Shown here piece after piece: positions 20,611-63,596 of a stretch of 64,000 nucleotides of DNA (positions are counted from its first letter, which is position 1; every line of letters starts with the position of its first letter). Origin of the DNA: a virus (taxonomy: Duplodnaviria; Heunggongvirae; Uroviricota; Caudoviricetes); the IMG/VR virus record IMGVR_UViG_3300027819_000007, positions 83,787-147,786 of that record. The stretch is one strand, 5' to 3'. The notes beneath the pieces are model-generated. The model was not told where the DNA came from and did no database searches. It saw only the letters and a program-made list of their open reading frames with translations. The position numbers and the translations under genes are program-made.

Positions 20611-21304
20611 GTAGTAAATCCAAAACCCAGCAGCCCCTCACATGAGGATCGAAAGATTGTTCCCATCCAAATCCACTTGTCCTGGAACAATAAGTACATG
20701 GAGAAATTTCCTTACCTAGTGATTTCCACTTGGCTCCTGTACCGTCACACTGAGAACATACTTTCCATCCTCGACAGTGTCTCAAGATGTTCTCATTCGT
20801 GCAGTCTGCCTCCTCCAGCATATCTCCCAGGATGGGCATCATGGTAAAATCCCTGGATTGGTATATTTCCTGAGCAAGATTAGGAATAGTTTTACCGTTC
20901 CAAGTGAGCCAGCGGACATTGAATGATGTATCTGGTTTTCTAGTGATGTTCTGGTCCCAATCATACTTCTCCACGGGACACCACGGATTCCCGAAAATGT
21001 CCCTCAACAATGAGGCTCGTTCTGCAAAAGTTGGTTTATTCCTTCCAAATTCCGTCCATCCCCTAGCCCATCCTTCGTCGGAGTATTCTGTTCCACACTC
21101 ACTACTCATTCCGTCTTTCTCATAACCCTCTACTACTTCCAATGCTGTTCCTTGTGCTAAGCAACATGCACAGGCATACAGCCTTAACTTTCTATCACTT
21201 GCTGTAGAAGGACGCCAGGCTCCATATTGAGCTTCTCGTCCTTCCAACAGCCACTCCAGCATCTTGGTAGGGATTTCACACTTCAACCATTCGGTTTCAG
21301 TCAT
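20597..21304 (-). CDS. hypothetical protein, family B (paralog of 21894..22553)
   Basis: 235 aa. Shared C-terminus 'ILGDMLEEADC...RGCWVLDLLLAKE' versus 'ILADALEESGC...RGCWVLDLLLGKE'. CxxC pairs present. Confidence 0.5.
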   Translation of the reverse strand: MTETEWLKCEIPTKMLEWLLEGREAQYGAWRPSTASDRKLRLYACACCLAQGTALEVVEGYEKDGMSSECGTEYSDEGWARGWTEFGRNKPTFAERASLLRDIFGNPWCPVEKYDWDQNITRKPDTSFNVRWLTWNGKTIPNLAQEIYQSRDFTMMPILGDMLEEADCTNENILRHCRGWKVCSQCDGTGAKWKSLGKEISPCTYCSRTSGFGWEQSFDPHVRGCWVLDLLLAKE

Positions 21305-21930
21305 AGTTGTTTTCCTTCTGATGGTGATAAGTTTGCTAGTTCTCGACCTTGAGCAACTAACTTTTCGGAAAAGGCATTTCGTAGTGAAGGTCTCCCAATC
21401 CCATCAATTTTCGTTATGGGGAACAAAGAGAACATTTCTTTAGCATACTTATTGAAATTTTCCATTGTGGTTCGCCACAGGAAGGGGAAACCTCGATGGA
21501 CCATTAATACTTCAACTCCTCCTATCCATCCTTCTTGGATTGTCTTCCCTCGTTCCAAAACACATGGAAAAGGAGTAGAAAACCACTCTTCATAACTTAC
21601 ATACTTCGCTGCCCAGAGGTCCATCACTTGGTCATTTTTGGTGAGATACTGCTTGCAGTTCTTACAGAAGGAAGATTTATCCTTGGGCCAATATAAATTC
21701 TCACCACATGAATACATGAACTGATCACAACCATACTTCCCTGACGCTAGTTCTACTTCCAATCGTAAGAATTGAGCCTGGTTCTGTTTACCCTGCTCCT
21801 CTAACCAATCGGAGTAAACTAGTCTCACTTCATCATCATGAGGATTTTCTAAGATGGCTCTTAGCAGTTGTTTTCCCGTGGTAGTCATGAGAATTACTCC
21901 TTTCCAAGCAAGAGATCCAAAACCCAGCAT
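21301..21930 (-). CDS. protein with N-terminal repeat-companion-like 'RLVYSDWLEE' domain, family C
   Basis: 209 aa. N-terminus 'LLRAILENPHDDEVRLVYSDWLEEQGKQNQAQFLRLEVEL'. Paralog of 22956..23711, with the shared C-terminal block 'AKEMFSLFPIT'. Confidence 0.5.
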   Translation of the reverse strand: MLGFGSLAWKGVILMTTTGKQLLRAILENPHDDEVRLVYSDWLEEQGKQNQAQFLRLEVELASGKYGCDQFMYSCGENLYWPKDKSSFCKNCKQYLTKNDQVMDLWAAKYVSYEEWFSTPFPCVLERGKTIQEGWIGGVEVLMVHRGFPFLWRTTMENFNKYAKEMFSLFPITKIDGIGRPSLRNAFSEKLVAQGRELANLSPSEGKQL

Positions 21931-60848: not shown

Positions 60849-60851
60849 GAT

Positions 60852-63596
60852 TTAGTGCCTCCCGTTTGTGGAGACCGTCATTCTCCCACGAGTGTTTAGT
60901 TTCTTTTTGGACTTAGAGTGAACCCCGTTGAGTGACTTGCTTCTTGTAGTTCCCAGGAGTCGAGCTACCGTCATGGCGTCGAAATAAGAAAATTGACAGA
61001 CATAATACTCTATCTGTTCTCCAAAATTTCCTTCTTGTGTTTCTCGCAATACTCCCTGCCACCGTTCCGACCAGGTTTCGATTTGCTCCGGAGTTGCTCC
61101 ATGCTCTTCCAACCACATTTCCAGGAAGTACAAAGGGGCTTTCCCCATTAAGAAATCTTGAAGCATTTGTCGGAACTCTTGACGTTCCTCGTCATTCAAT
61201 CTCTTCCTTCCAACCCTTCGTTCCAACTCTTCTCGTATGGGAGTAAGAAAAACTTCTAGTTTCTTTCTTTCCTCTTCACTCTCATAGGGAACTTGAGGAT
61301 AGGGTTCTTGAAAATACTTTAGCTTGTTAGTCACAACCTCACGAAGTTGGTCCACTCCTGGTATGGAATTCTCTTCCAGCTTATCACAATAGATGAGAAG
61401 TTCTTCTCCTACCTCTACACTAAACCCATAAATCAACTTTTGCTCCAAGCCACTCATCCAGTTGAGGATTTCCTCATAATCCTTGTTGGATTTGGTGTGA
61501 ACTCCGTTGAGTCGTTTTTCTTCTTGAGGTGGGGCTTGTTTAGGTGGTTTGAATCCTGGTTGCTGTTCGATCCATTGGAGAATTTCTTCGATATGTTTGT
61601 AAACTTCTCTCAGGGAACAACTAAAGCGATTCCAATGGTAATCCCCTTTCCCTCTCTCTTTTCTTTTAGAAATAAGATCAACAATTTGCTGACGAAAAAT
61701 ATCTGATTTTCCCCATCCCGATTCTTCTACTGCATCGGCTAAAATTGATAATTCCGAATCCTCTGCTTGGGAAAGTGGTCTACCTTCTCTTCCTCTCCCC
61801 AAAAAACTTCCACCATACGAAGACAACCACTCATGTAGCATGGGAGGGATAGCTTTAGTGTGAACTCCATTTAGTCCCTTCCGGTTCCACTCCAGTAAGG
61901 AAGCTCCACGGGGACCGAGACTTCCTTCCCCTAGAGTGTTAGGAGTAGGAGCTTCACCACCTTCTCCTTCTGGCTCGATGTCACCAATTCCTTCACTTTC
62001 CAAATCCCCTTCACCACCCATACCACCACCAGGGAAGCCTCCTCCCATATCTCCGCCACCACCTCCACCCCCCATTCCTCCCATTCCTGCGGGAACTTCT
62101 GGCTCACTACTCTCCCCAGCAATCTCATCACCCCACTCTTCCCGTGTAGTTGGCATATCCAATTCTTTAAGGACTTGATTCTTGGTAATACACTTGGCAC
62201 TCATGGCAAGTTGGATCTTACCATTCCTCACTTCATGGTCGTCGATTCGTTTACAACGAATTTCAATAATGAGGTTGTCACCAAAGAAGGGAGCCAGGTG
62301 ACGAGTAAGGTCACTGGCAATGTCGTTCAAGTCAGGTTCAAGAGTAAGCAAGTGAAGTTGCTTCAAGGTAGCGAAAAGAGTAGCATAAGAGTTGTCAGCC
62401 ATCATACCTGCTGCTTCCTTGCTGATACCAAATCCACCCATCGCAAAACCAGTCTCTTGTTCCCAGCCAGAACCATAGTCCATTTCCATAGGTTTGGCTC
62501 CCCACGGCTCAATCTTAGCTCCCGGAGTGGGAACCAAGAGTTGTCCAACATTCTCCGGTCCCATGTGAGATTCTTCAAACATGGATCGAAGTCGTTCAAT
62601 CTCCTCTTCTGTCAACGTGTTGGCATTCTCTACTCCCTCCATGTTGAGAACCGCAGAGGGGTTAATACTCCGCTTCATGGCATACCAACGTGATTTGTAG
62701 ATGGAATCAATCACATCCAAAGTCAATCGCATACCCGTCAATGGTGAGTATCCATCATAACGAAGGAGGGGATGAGGGAACATAAACCGTAGCATCCACT
62801 CCCCTGGAATCGGGGCACCGAGTGCTGTGTTAGGAGTAGGATAAGACGAGAAAGGACCATAGGGGTATACAGGTTGAATACGCCAGAACCCATTAGGGAA
62901 TTCTGGATTGATGACAGGTTGGGGAATGGCAATGGAAGTGGGGATGCAATACATCTCATACGGCACCCCTAACTCATTAGGGACCATCCAGTTCAGTCCC
63001 GTTCCTGTGAGATATTTTTGTTGTCCAATCCGATACATCCACTTCCCGAACGAATCTTGACGATTGGGTTTCTCCAGGAGTTCAATCAAATCATAAGGAC
63101 GAACATGCTTCTTGGTGGATTGGGTATGTTTGGTAACAGGTTTCTTTCCATCAGGGTGGTTGTCATCTTTCTCGAAAACTTGAAACTCAGCTTGCTGCCA
63201 TTGGGTACAAATGCGATGTACAGCTACGTAAACGATTCCAGTGAAGCGTCGAGTTTGCTCGAAACGATCATCGCTCCATCCCCCAGGAGCATCAGACCGC
63301 ATTGCCTCTAACAATCGCTTAAAGGCTGCGGCTGAGGATGCACTTCTTATATAACTATTTGCCGAGTTGGACTCTGGTGGTTTGGTTTCGTGGCGATCTT
63401 CTTTGGAGACTCCACCAAAGACTCGTTGCCAAAGTCTTTGTCCCTCAAACCTTCCCTGAAAAGGAGACTTGGTGTGGACGGTGAGTTCTTGAGGAGGAGC
63501 AGAAGTGAGATTGGAAATAAAACCCATGATTGTTCTTTCTATGGACCACTCATGAACTAAAACCTCCTTACAGATGATTGGAACTTGTTGAATCAA
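60852..63596 (-). CDS. portal protein (HK97-family-like core) with Gly-rich linker and ~370-aa C-terminal extension
   Basis: 914 aa. The core resembles phage portal proteins ('LIELLEKPNRQDSFGKWMYRIGQQKYLTGTGLNWMVPNELGVPYEMYCIP', 'DNSYATLFATLKQLHLLTLEP'). It is followed by a 'GMGGMGGGGGGGDMGGGFPGGG' linker and an extension carrying three 'LNGVH(T/S)K' motifs and one 'LEMWLEEHG' motif. Confidence 0.65.
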   Translation of the reverse strand: MIQQVPIICKEVLVHEWSIERTIMGFISNLTSAPPQELTVHTKSPFQGRFEGQRLWQRVFGGVSKEDRHETKPPESNSANSYIRSASSAAAFKRLLEAMRSDAPGGWSDDRFEQTRRFTGIVYVAVHRICTQWQQAEFQVFEKDDNHPDGKKPVTKHTQSTKKHVRPYDLIELLEKPNRQDSFGKWMYRIGQQKYLTGTGLNWMVPNELGVPYEMYCIPTSIAIPQPVINPEFPNGFWRIQPVYPYGPFSSYPTPNTALGAPIPGEWMLRFMFPHPLLRYDGYSPLTGMRLTLDVIDSIYKSRWYAMKRSINPSAVLNMEGVENANTLTEEEIERLRSMFEESHMGPENVGQLLVPTPGAKIEPWGAKPMEMDYGSGWEQETGFAMGGFGISKEAAGMMADNSYATLFATLKQLHLLTLEPDLNDIASDLTRHLAPFFGDNLIIEIRCKRIDDHEVRNGKIQLAMSAKCITKNQVLKELDMPTTREEWGDEIAGESSEPEVPAGMGGMGGGGGGGDMGGGFPGGGMGGEGDLESEGIGDIEPEGEGGEAPTPNTLGEGSLGPRGASLLEWNRKGLNGVHTKAIPPMLHEWLSSYGGSFLGRGREGRPLSQAEDSELSILADAVEESGWGKSDIFRQQIVDLISKRKERGKGDYHWNRFSCSLREVYKHIEEILQWIEQQPGFKPPKQAPPQEEKRLNGVHTKSNKDYEEILNWMSGLEQKLIYGFSVEVGEELLIYCDKLEENSIPGVDQLREVVTNKLKYFQEPYPQVPYESEEERKKLEVFLTPIREELERRVGRKRLNDEERQEFRQMLQDFLMGKAPLYFLEMWLEEHGATPEQIETWSERWQGVLRETQEGNFGEQIEYYVCQFSYFDAMTVARLLGTTRSKSLNGVHSKSKKKLNTRGRMTVSTNGRH

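Follow-up and report, generated by a model that had tools for sequence, protein, structure and literature searches.

Multiple predicted copies of TIGR02996, a Planctomycete repeat-companion domain, in a large uncultured tailed phage

TIGR02996, the NCBIfam 'rpt_mate_G_obs' repeat-companion domain (curated cut-off 29.05 bits), is carried by proteins of Gemmata and other Gemmatales, and analogues can be drawn from elsewhere. Virus and pathogen F-box proteins place a short helical adaptor N-terminal to leucine-rich repeats (LRRs) or WD40 repeats, and were captured from hosts to hijack host machinery. Phage heads offer a second point of comparison, as T4 internal proteins have a capsid-targeting sequence, and temperate phages have MuF-linked or portal-linked cargo domains. 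Here we describe TIGR02996 domains in a 64,000-nucleotide stretch of viral DNA, positions 83,787 to 147,786 of IMG/VR record IMGVR_UViG_3300027819_000007 (hereafter the window, whose coordinates are used throughout unless a locus is named; (-) marks the minus strand, and open reading frames, ORFs, are named by their lower coordinate). As judged from its portal, HK97-fold major capsid protein (MCP) and head-tail adaptor genes and from a 163,540-bp metagenomic record (GCA_900218215.1, ORJL010676767.1) encoding proteins identical to those of the window, it comes from an uncultured tailed phage whose genome is large, no less than 163 kb. A preprint assigns an ORJL01 sequence to a sample from New York State. 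Nearly all of its plausible genes are on the minus strand, and its GC content is 0.43-0.47.

The phage proteins resemble their Gemmatales counterparts in matching the same curated hidden Markov model (HMM), at up to 67 bits, with the signature RLVYSDWLEE.G..RAEFIR, and those that we call A-type also share the N-terminal placement of the domain and a WRRGF module. Unlike the bacterial proteins, the phage copies are without LRRs, shorter, multi-copy and phage-encoded, and they include a C-terminal copy (40666), stand-alone copies and a fusion to a Ser/Gly (SG) repeat tail. The likeness to F-box proteins is one of analogy: a small helical N-terminal repeat-companion domain, expanded in the host and joined to varied partners, would have been taken over by a parasite. 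We propose, with a confidence that stands midway between belief and doubt, that the domain is a docking module of host origin which the phage has separated from LRRs and put to use on several of its proteins. The domain family itself is already known; the phage-borne, LRR-less, multi-copy form, a cassette pairing it with a second family, its association with packaging genes, and a head-proximal subset bearing a basic leader peptide appear to be undescribed.

Copies of the domain in the window and in other genomes

An initial annotation had read ten ORFs sharing a DWLEE-type helix as a single expanded family. All ten exist on the minus strand, each with the motif helix; membership of TIGR02996 is confirmed for six (21301, 22956, 33949, 40666, 43435 and 47303) and probable for one more (54648), while the portal, 48674 and 52478 share the motif only. 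That the motif is compositionally trivial, a chance product of an acidic and Leu-rich proteome, has almost nothing left to recommend it, and for the six core copies it is refuted. Short helical motifs of L, E and D are indeed common, and 48674, 52478, the portal and a neighbouring protein family (family B, below) match over only 10-19 columns. Yet in 2000 within-protein residue shuffles of the predicted window proteins DWLEE, present six times, was expected 0.02 times, and [DEM]W[LIVM]EE, present eight times, 0.12 times; relaxed patterns, which were chosen after inspection of the data, occur 12-13 times against about 0.05 expected. The observed counts were reached in none of the shuffles, and matches to the curated model extend to 67 bits.

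A search with the TIGR02996 model, as the initial annotation had proposed, bore out its identification of the N-terminal form of the motif, at 66-67 bits in the two best ORFs. Four ORFs score above the curated cut-off (22956, 66.8 bits; 21301, 66.2; 47303, 36.8; 43435, 32.8). A further two fall under it but are significant (33949, 24.8 bits, E 1.3e-5; 40666, 16.1 bits, E 0.007), and these are strongly retrieved by HMM profiles of our own (31-63 bits; hhalign 95-98%). By profile comparison, then, these six ORFs encode genuine TIGR02996 domains.

The A-type protein 22956 (251 aa; 22956..23711 (-)) has the domain at its N-terminus (nt 23559-23702), followed by a Cys-rich insert (CLCGRC...C), a WRRGF beta-hairpin and alpha/beta module and a C-terminal helix. 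In its AlphaFold2 (AF2) model (predicted local distance difference test score, pLDDT, 74; predicted template modelling score 0.74) the domain is predicted to form three helices, at aa 6-15, 20-32 and 36-54, with pLDDT >90. Its paralogue 21301 (21301..21888 (-); domain at nt 21742-21882) has 195 aa when read from the ATG at 21888 of an ORF open to 21930, as in the gene call of locus L001, and aligns with 22956 at 34% identity across 172 aa (E 1e-22). Both are full-length members of a family of small proteins, mostly metagenomic, whose homologues share this layout and in which the alpha/beta module is followed by a C-terminal helix, 'LS..CV.YGR..AGLPPL'.

The other four copies are more varied in form. 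In 33949 (181 aa; 33949..34494 (-)), which adjoins sugar-modification genes, a truncated domain at nt 34279-34419 (own HMM 48-63 bits; hhalign 97.6%) is joined to an unrelated 110-aa tail. In 40666 (150 aa; 40666..41118 (-)) a hydrophobic N-terminus and a CxxC...CxxC segment precede a partial domain at nt 40669-40803 (own HMM 31-51 bits; hhalign 95%), an atypical C-terminal placement. The 116-aa protein 43435 (43435..43785 (-); domain at nt 43582-43722) ends in an SG-repeat tail that matches the SG-repeat proteins 55743-58061 and 59382-60236, encoded just past the portal, and its stop and the beginning of a glycosyltransferase gene (42383-43435, GT1 domain) overlap. Finally, 47303 (87 aa; 47303..47566 (-)) is a nearly stand-alone domain (nt 47387-47527) with 54% identity to 43435 across 57 aa. 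The domain is N-terminal, or nearly so depending on the choice of start, in five of the six copies, with 40666 the exception. The full signature P.DD..RLVYADWLEE.G...RAEFIR is kept in 21301 and 22956 and a DWLEE or DWLKE core in all six, with the third-helix signature eroded in 43435, 47303 and 33949. The varied partners that the initial annotation had described are thus borne out for Cys-rich or zinc-ribbon inserts (22956, 21301 and 40666) and for the SG-repeat tail; fusion to the portal is not demonstrable, and the 'MAD' proteins that it had also named are only probable relatives. No Pfam LRR model matches any window carrier of TIGR02996, nor does any other Pfam domain.

A seventh copy (L108:5667-6074; 31.8 bits with our own profile, 18.5 bits with the NCBIfam model) is encoded just beyond the window, some 5 kb upstream of the portal, while the 10 kb downstream of the window, which hold tail genes, contain no copy. 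Iterative HMM searches, seeded either on the window or on 157 domains from 107 loci, converge on the six window copies, or on seven with L108. On these profile searches the phage carries at least seven genuine copies, six of them in the window, together with several degenerate ones.

In bacteria, a pattern scan of one genome per species (185,579 species; one strict pattern) yielded 419 confirmed relatives, and the best 80 of these essentially all belong to Gemmataceae, Gemmatales, Gemmata, Fimbriiglobus, Frigoriglobus, Limnoglobus, Pirellulaceae, Rubripirellula or unclassified Planctomycetota, which agrees with the restriction to Planctomycetes that had been suggested for the domain. A further 21 loci (among L006-L083) come from third-party metagenome-assembled genomes (MAGs) titled 'uncultured Alcaligenaceae bacterium', with many TIGR02996-LRR genes per genome; the label is probably wrong, since the flanks encode DUF1501, DUF1552 and formylmethanofuran-H4MPT formyltransferase (FTR) proteins of Planctomycete type. 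The bacterial domain is N-terminal in 96 of 96 complete ORFs (median 356 aa), and is always followed directly by the WRRGF hairpin and usually by LRRs. Repeats of the LRR_6 type were found in 53 of 93 bacterial proteins versus none of 45 viral ones; with about 40% of bacterial members having no detectable LRRs, the association is typical and not strict. Across 93 diverse proteins the charged and aromatic residues of R..L..DWLEE.G..A..IR are near-invariant, which suggests a conserved interface.

Among viruses, 24 IMG/VR contigs of widely differing GC content (0.36-0.75) carry the domain, seven of them with 3-4 copies in 20 kb, and it is N-terminal in 46 of 47 carrier ORFs (median 220 aa). Within two genes on either side, the commonest neighbours are genes for TerL, portal, DNA methyltransferase or HNH endonuclease. 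In L087 and L093 a TIGR02996 gene lies immediately upstream of a relative of the window portal, and in L086, L095 and L100/L101 one flanks TerL. Searches of GenBank phages (50,697 records) with either a full protein or the consensus domain gave no match.

The A/B cassette, degenerate copies and motif-level likenesses

The two A-type genes belong to a cluster (20338-24546, minus strand) that comes after a methyltransferase gene (24581-26473) and reads, in transcription order, 23938 (A-like), 22956 (A), 22684, 21894 (B), 21301 (A), 20597 (B) and 20338. From the similarities among its members the cluster is read as a tandemly duplicated A-B pair. The B proteins, which alternate with the A-type genes, are 20597 (235 aa; 20597..21304 (-); C-terminal '...ILGDMLEEADC...RGCWVLDLLLAKE') and 21894 (219 aa; 21894..22553 (-); 'ILADALEESGC...RGCWVLDLLLGKE'), related to each other with a BLASTP E of 4e-11. 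Both belong over their full length (E down to 1e-44) to a family with the consensus MTExEWL..DRKLRLFACACCR...ILADALEEAGC...HVRGCWVLDLLLGKE and at least 2388 homologues, one of them on the chromosome of Gemmata sp. SH-PL17, and in phages and bacteria alike the family is found beside TIGR02996 genes. Such co-occurrence was seen in the viral loci L085, L088, L094, L098 and L104 and in the genome loci L015, L033 (Gemmata algarum) and L045; in L094, a 194-kb viral contig, seven B copies fall within 20 kb. Family B is covered by no Pfam or NCBIfam model, and its AF2 model, although confident (pLDDT 86.6), has no structural neighbour in the PDB. The family B helix LADALEEaGC resembles DWLEE.G, but hhalign, at 10% over 19 columns, does not establish that the two are homologous. 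PDB sequence searches with A and B returned only chance-level matches, to picornavirus VP2 and arenavirus GP2; the predicted A-type structure showed no similarity to solved structures such as F-box adaptor folds, and a search of BFVD was also empty. A terminator-like hairpin (24527-24551 (-); 9-bp stem and T-run) lies between the methyltransferase gene and the first A/B gene, though such sites in the region are no more numerous than expected from shuffles.

Beyond the ten ORFs first listed, there are seven candidate copies: 23938, the N-termini of three MAD proteins (53700, 54079 and 55393), 51215, 22684 and 20338. We compared about 113 window proteins with TIGR02996 in an unbiased profile-profile scan (hhalign), in which P <4e-4 survives Bonferroni correction; the C-terminal unit of 54648 reached 69% (P 4e-5), 52478 43%, 23938 36%, 53700 21% and the portal 14%. 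Alignments of units made by hand score higher (56-93%), their sequences having been picked by eye. The NCBIfam model itself matches none of 23938, 48674, 52478, 54648, 53700, 54079, 55393 or the portal.

The 202-aa protein 23938 (23938..24546 (-)) has a unit at nt 24361-24459 ('LLDWVEENP') that gives hhalign values of 36-56% (P 1-4e-4) and a BLASTP match to 47303 (E 9e-5); it is probably a degenerate TIGR02996 copy. The 246-aa MAD protein 54648 (54648..55388 (-)) has two units, a MAD N-terminal unit (nt 55275-55388) and, after a leader peptide (IKSLRRKYSMKS), a second unit containing DWLEEHG (nt 54807-54941). This second unit (hhalign 54-69%, P 4e-5; HMM window-E 6e-4) suggests that the C-terminal half is probably a TIGR02996 copy; a homologue search of 1.84e9 representative proteins with 54648 matched only itself. 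Two small MAD proteins occupy 53700..54405 (-), namely 53700-54074 and 54079-54405; each has the N-terminal unit 'DY(L/V)(E/Q)ENY' and the end IKSLR(L/I)KY..K, and they match each other by BLASTP at E 1e-8. The MAD-like N-terminus of 55393 (112 aa; 55393..55731 (-); 'ITDGIEEEF') was placed in the MAD alignment by eye only and is the weakest member. Compared with TIGR02996, the N-termini of 53700, 54079, 54648 and 55393 give 21-34% as single sequences and 56-88% as a by-eye alignment, values consistent with the MAD proteins being probable remote relatives of the domain.

Further links run through the L108 region. The 133-aa protein 51215 (51215..51616 (-)) opens with MNNIKSLRLKYRKKS, continues with a degenerate helical unit, and is found by phmmer from L108:5667-6074 (E 1.8e-4) via the leader; its unit gives 92.6% against the TIGR02996 profile when aligned by hand. 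The L108:5667 protein matches A-type proteins, 51215, 53700 and a 353-aa MAD protein (L108:8134-9195), which in turn matches 53700, 54079 and 54648 (all E 1e-3 to 1e-5 in proteome-sized searches), although these bridging matches owe part of their signal to the common leader peptide and not to the domain. Two small genes of the A/B cluster are possible degenerate units: 22684 (91 aa, between A and B, called as a gene in L001; 22684..22959 (-); 'LLQAIQSEKD...LADLLMETSD'; HMM window-E 0.11, hhalign 16%) and the last gene, 20338 (90 aa; 20338..20610 (-); 'LHDLLCERGY'), where hhalign gives a weak 2-12%.

In the three remaining ORFs the resemblance stops at the motif. The 568-aa protein 48674 (48674..50380 (-); 'QDWLLEHGATSV...VDWPKEE'), whose motif was read from the sequence, is not detected as TIGR02996, and 52478 (136 aa; 52478..52888 (-); 'HDWLLEHGMDSV...INWPEE'), which overlaps neighbouring ORF calls, reaches its 43% over 10 columns only. 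The two have a common stretch of their own, 'DWLLEHG.(D/T)SV...WP.EE', and match TIGR02996 over only about 10 columns.

The third is the portal (914 aa; 60852-63596 (-)), identified by PF04860 Phage_portal on the record and by tblastn matches to annotated portals; TIGR01537 matches it sub-threshold (32.8 bits, under a cut-off of 112), and its N-terminal part is of HK97/GTA (gene transfer agent) type as judged from these matches. The closest IMG/VR relative is L002, whose 555-aa portal is 48-52% identical over aa 20-594 and is without the extension. Beyond the portal core, which stops at about aa 500-560, the last ~350 aa form an orphan extension (aa ~560-914; 60855..61919 (-)), whose modules are delimited by three K.LNGVH(T/S)K motifs and which has three motif helices (aa ~618, ILADAVEESGW; ~735, IYCDKLEENS; ~827, LEMWLEEHGA). 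Against TIGR02996 the extension gives 3-14% in the unbiased comparison and 72-85% only with a hand-picked alignment of its repeats. It has no homologues among 5.8e9 proteins and 54648 matches only itself, so that no alignment could be built for either. Endings of 'LNGKSHRK...' in the related L090 portal and 'NGSH' in that of L002 make the extension look like a set of insertions between duplicated copies of a conserved portal tail. The related portals of L087 (a 1660-aa ORF) and L093 (818 aa) bear long C-terminal extensions of their own, different from this one. The extension of the L087 ORF (8366-13345 of IMG/VR UViG 3300046535_001464; ~1660 aa) contains apparent 2H-phosphoesterase motifs ('SHITVCYG', 'SPHVSIAK') and repeats the linker 'K(D/S)SGHEHD.GTGQFSTTDT', which suggests that portals of the L087 clade may be a platform for appended cargo domains.

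A docking role and the host

In the mechanism that we propose, the domain would have been captured from the Planctomycete host lineage, and its three helices, of ~45 residues, would work as a portable protein-protein docking module on different phage proteins. The docked partner would most likely be whatever binds the N-terminal domain of the host TIGR02996-LRR proteins, or those LRR proteins themselves. The window copies are attached to a zinc-ribbon/WRRGF module, to an SG-repeat tail or to nothing, and they are spread over three modules: the A/B cassette by the methyltransferase, the sugar and glycosyltransferase cluster (43435, 47303 and 33949) and the head region. Three such different neighbourhoods fit a general-purpose adaptor, and the versions of 87 and 116 aa that stand alone speak for a domain acting autonomously and not as a mere LRR cap.

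The same distribution has been weighed against two other explanations. The copies could be passenger genes, host morons gained repeatedly by horizontal transfer and neutrally duplicated, with TIGR02996 a mere solenoid cap that has no common role in phages. The hairpin and LRRs that follow the bacterial domain are what a cap would show, the viral copies sit in accessory regions with methyltransferase and HNH genes, and many window copies are degenerate. We nevertheless think this unlikely. In 47303, 43435 and 40666 the domain is stand-alone or C-terminal, with no solenoid to cap; the LRR-less state holds in 45 of 45 viral proteins from contigs spanning a GC content of 0.36-0.75; DWLEE is kept in six paralogues that are otherwise <40% identical; and the window copies are closest to each other, pointing to duplication within the phage under selection. 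Alternatively, as a special case of docking, the LRR-less copies could be anti-defence decoys that heterodimerise or compete with host TIGR02996-LRR proteins acting as immunity-like sensors, and so block them. The contrast in LRR content between bacterial (53/93) and viral (0/45) proteins would suit a dominant-negative design, the family is large in each Gemmatales genome, with several loci per MAG among the best 80, and viral copies adjoin DNA methyltransferases of counter-defence type. Nothing, however, marks the TIGR02996-LRR proteins as defence genes: they have no recognisable effector domains, and their 3-kb flanks show no defence-island context. We therefore hold the decoy explanation to be distinctly improbable.

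The domain distribution, the co-occurrence with family B and the Gemmata match point to a host among the Planctomycetota, especially the Gemmatales; we consider a Planctomycetota host likely, and a Gemmatales host possible. The phage tRNA anticodons Leu-UAA, Glu-UUC and Val-UAC decode A-ending codons, and because phage tRNAs compensate for codons rare in the host, they fit an AT-rich phage in a GC-richer host.

Several observations weigh against a widely reused, host-derived docking module. The TIGR02996 domain is not demonstrable in the portal, 48674 or 52478, which have only the motif helix in common with it, and the iterative HMM searches never recruit these three, the MAD proteins, the other degenerate candidates or family B. 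No partner of TIGR02996 is known in any organism; the domain went unmentioned in the literature searched, where queries for 'TIGR02996' and 'repeat-companion domain' found no paper naming it, and no recurrent gene was found when a conserved neighbour of the bacterial copies was sought. As to the host, the lineage clue drawn by the initial annotation is upheld by the domain distribution and runs counter to base composition, the phage having a GC content of 0.44 against an average of ~0.65 for Gemmatales loci (the lowest locus, from Pirellulaceae, has 0.48). The strict pattern used in the genome scan, of whose 419 relatives the best 80 are considered here, also means that the remaining 339 may include other phyla.

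The recurrence of LRR-less phage copies argues, as far as sequence comparison can, for an autonomous and probably binding function of an orphan domain, and the small stand-alone versions (87-116 aa) provide a tractable route to its partner. To our knowledge the Planctomycetes are a phylum with almost no characterised viruses, and multi-copy, LRR-less TIGR02996 would be a sequence marker for phages of Gemmatales-type members.

A basic leader peptide and the head region

A basic peptide, K(S/G/R)L(R/S/N)x(K/V)(Y/H)xK (for example IKSLRLKYRKK), recurs at the termini and domain junctions of head-region proteins, and the genes that bear it flank the portal on both sides. This K-S-L leader is N-terminal in 51215 and in the seventh TIGR02996 copy, L108:5667 ('MKDIKSLRLKYRKKS'), lies at the very C-terminal end of 53700 and 54079, and separates the units of 54648 and of the 353-aa MAD protein. 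It is also present in 48674 and, by hhalign, in 50388. Window sites are at 51560-51604, 53703-53732, 54082-54111, 54948-54992, 50219-50248 and 8381-8410; the variant K.LNGVH(T/S)K occurs three times in the portal (61851-61880, 61488-61517 and 60909-60938). The leader is not a DNA repeat, as its codons vary among copies, and conservation is therefore at the peptide level.

Two leader-type motifs, KKSLSLKYHKK and QKSLRQKYRVN, are found in a 943-aa head-module protein (6692..9523 (-)), whose N-terminus resembles the non-capsid part of phrog_617 (positions 24-235, E 3e-7). It may be a prohead protease or scaffold, going by that match; Pfam, NCBIfam and the PDB gave no support for a protease. The MCP (3409-4860; matches to phrog_617, PF05065 and PDB 8gta) has 'CK-SLGDAG' at aa 99-106, and mature HK97 gp5 begins 'SLGSDADSAG' at residue 104, although 8gta, the solved relative, begins at the equivalent of aa 184, which leaves the true cleavage site uncertain. 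As a lead and not a finding, the leader could be a prohead-protease cleavage site or a capsid-targeting signal. A common short terminal peptide on small head-adjacent proteins, and extra modules on a portal C-terminus, recall T4 internal proteins and MuF cargo; unlike in those systems, the phage leader stands at either terminus, there is no homology, and its packaging and cleavage are putative.

Within the docking proposal, the head-proximal subset with the leader would probably be incorporated into the capsid. A separate explanation gives the capsid the whole role: the acidic DWLEE helices and basic leaders would be a domain-peptide pair, or the leaders protease or capsid-targeting signals, and MAD and TIGR02996-like proteins would be loaded into the prohead, anchored to the portal extension and then either released or ejected together with the DNA, as with T4 internal proteins or MuF-linked cargo. 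The places of the leader in L108:5667, 51215, 53700, 54079, 54648 and the 353-aa MAD protein are consistent with this, as are its two occurrences in 6692-9523, the three variants in the portal, the leader genes on both portal flanks, selection on the peptide across varying codons, the parallel between the MCP and HK97 gp5, and the long portal add-ons of L087 and L093. Yet the six robust window copies have no leader, cutting at the extreme-terminal leaders would remove only 5-10 residues, the protease call for 6692-9523 depends on a single PHROG match, and the cleavage site is made uncertain by 8gta; a purely capsid-internal role seems to us rather doubtful. The two ideas might also be combined, with TIGR02996-derived modules packaged behind K-S-L leaders on small head proteins and the portal tail, delivered with the DNA, and docking onto the host TIGR02996-LRR family so as to neutralise or hijack it. 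We put this forward as a long shot; if true, capsid-delivered docking would for the first time put the Gemmata TIGR02996-LRR family in a functional setting, that of a network targeted by phages and possibly immune in nature.

The head module is arranged unusually. The portal and MCP genes, which are normally close in HK97-type head modules, lie ~56 kb apart with same-strand genes between them, including ORFan giants of 1622, 1071 and 943 aa; the head-tail adaptor is at 2032-2709. Directly after the portal (55743-60236) comes a family of degenerate 'SG..SG.I.SG' repeat proteins (772, 284, 63 and possibly 288 aa), the 288-aa member having a Laminin_G_3/ConA-like domain. The family is also kept in the related viral contig L002 (8171-13339), and its members are probably fibres or decoration proteins.

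Between the portal and capsid genes there is also a deoxy-amino-sugar and glycosylation set (33128-39334, 42383-43435 and 45988-47022), interspersed with four TIGR02996 genes, which comprises a sugar C-methyltransferase, an NAD epimerase/dehydratase, a formyltransferase, a NIF-type phosphatase, a DegT aminotransferase and two GT1/GT4 glycosyltransferases. The Ser/Gly-repeat proteins of the virion region might be glycosylation targets. A tRNA cluster (29608-29940 and 31056-31131) encodes Met, Leu(UAA), Met, Glu(UUC) and Val(UAC) tRNAs, four of the five confirmed by Rfam; as the Val tRNA falls inside ORF 30975-31562, the ORF has probably been called too long or is no gene. Amid the accessory genes, a 235-aa protein (44657-45364) with a sigma-70 region 4/helix-turn-helix C-terminus may be a phage-encoded sigma-like factor.

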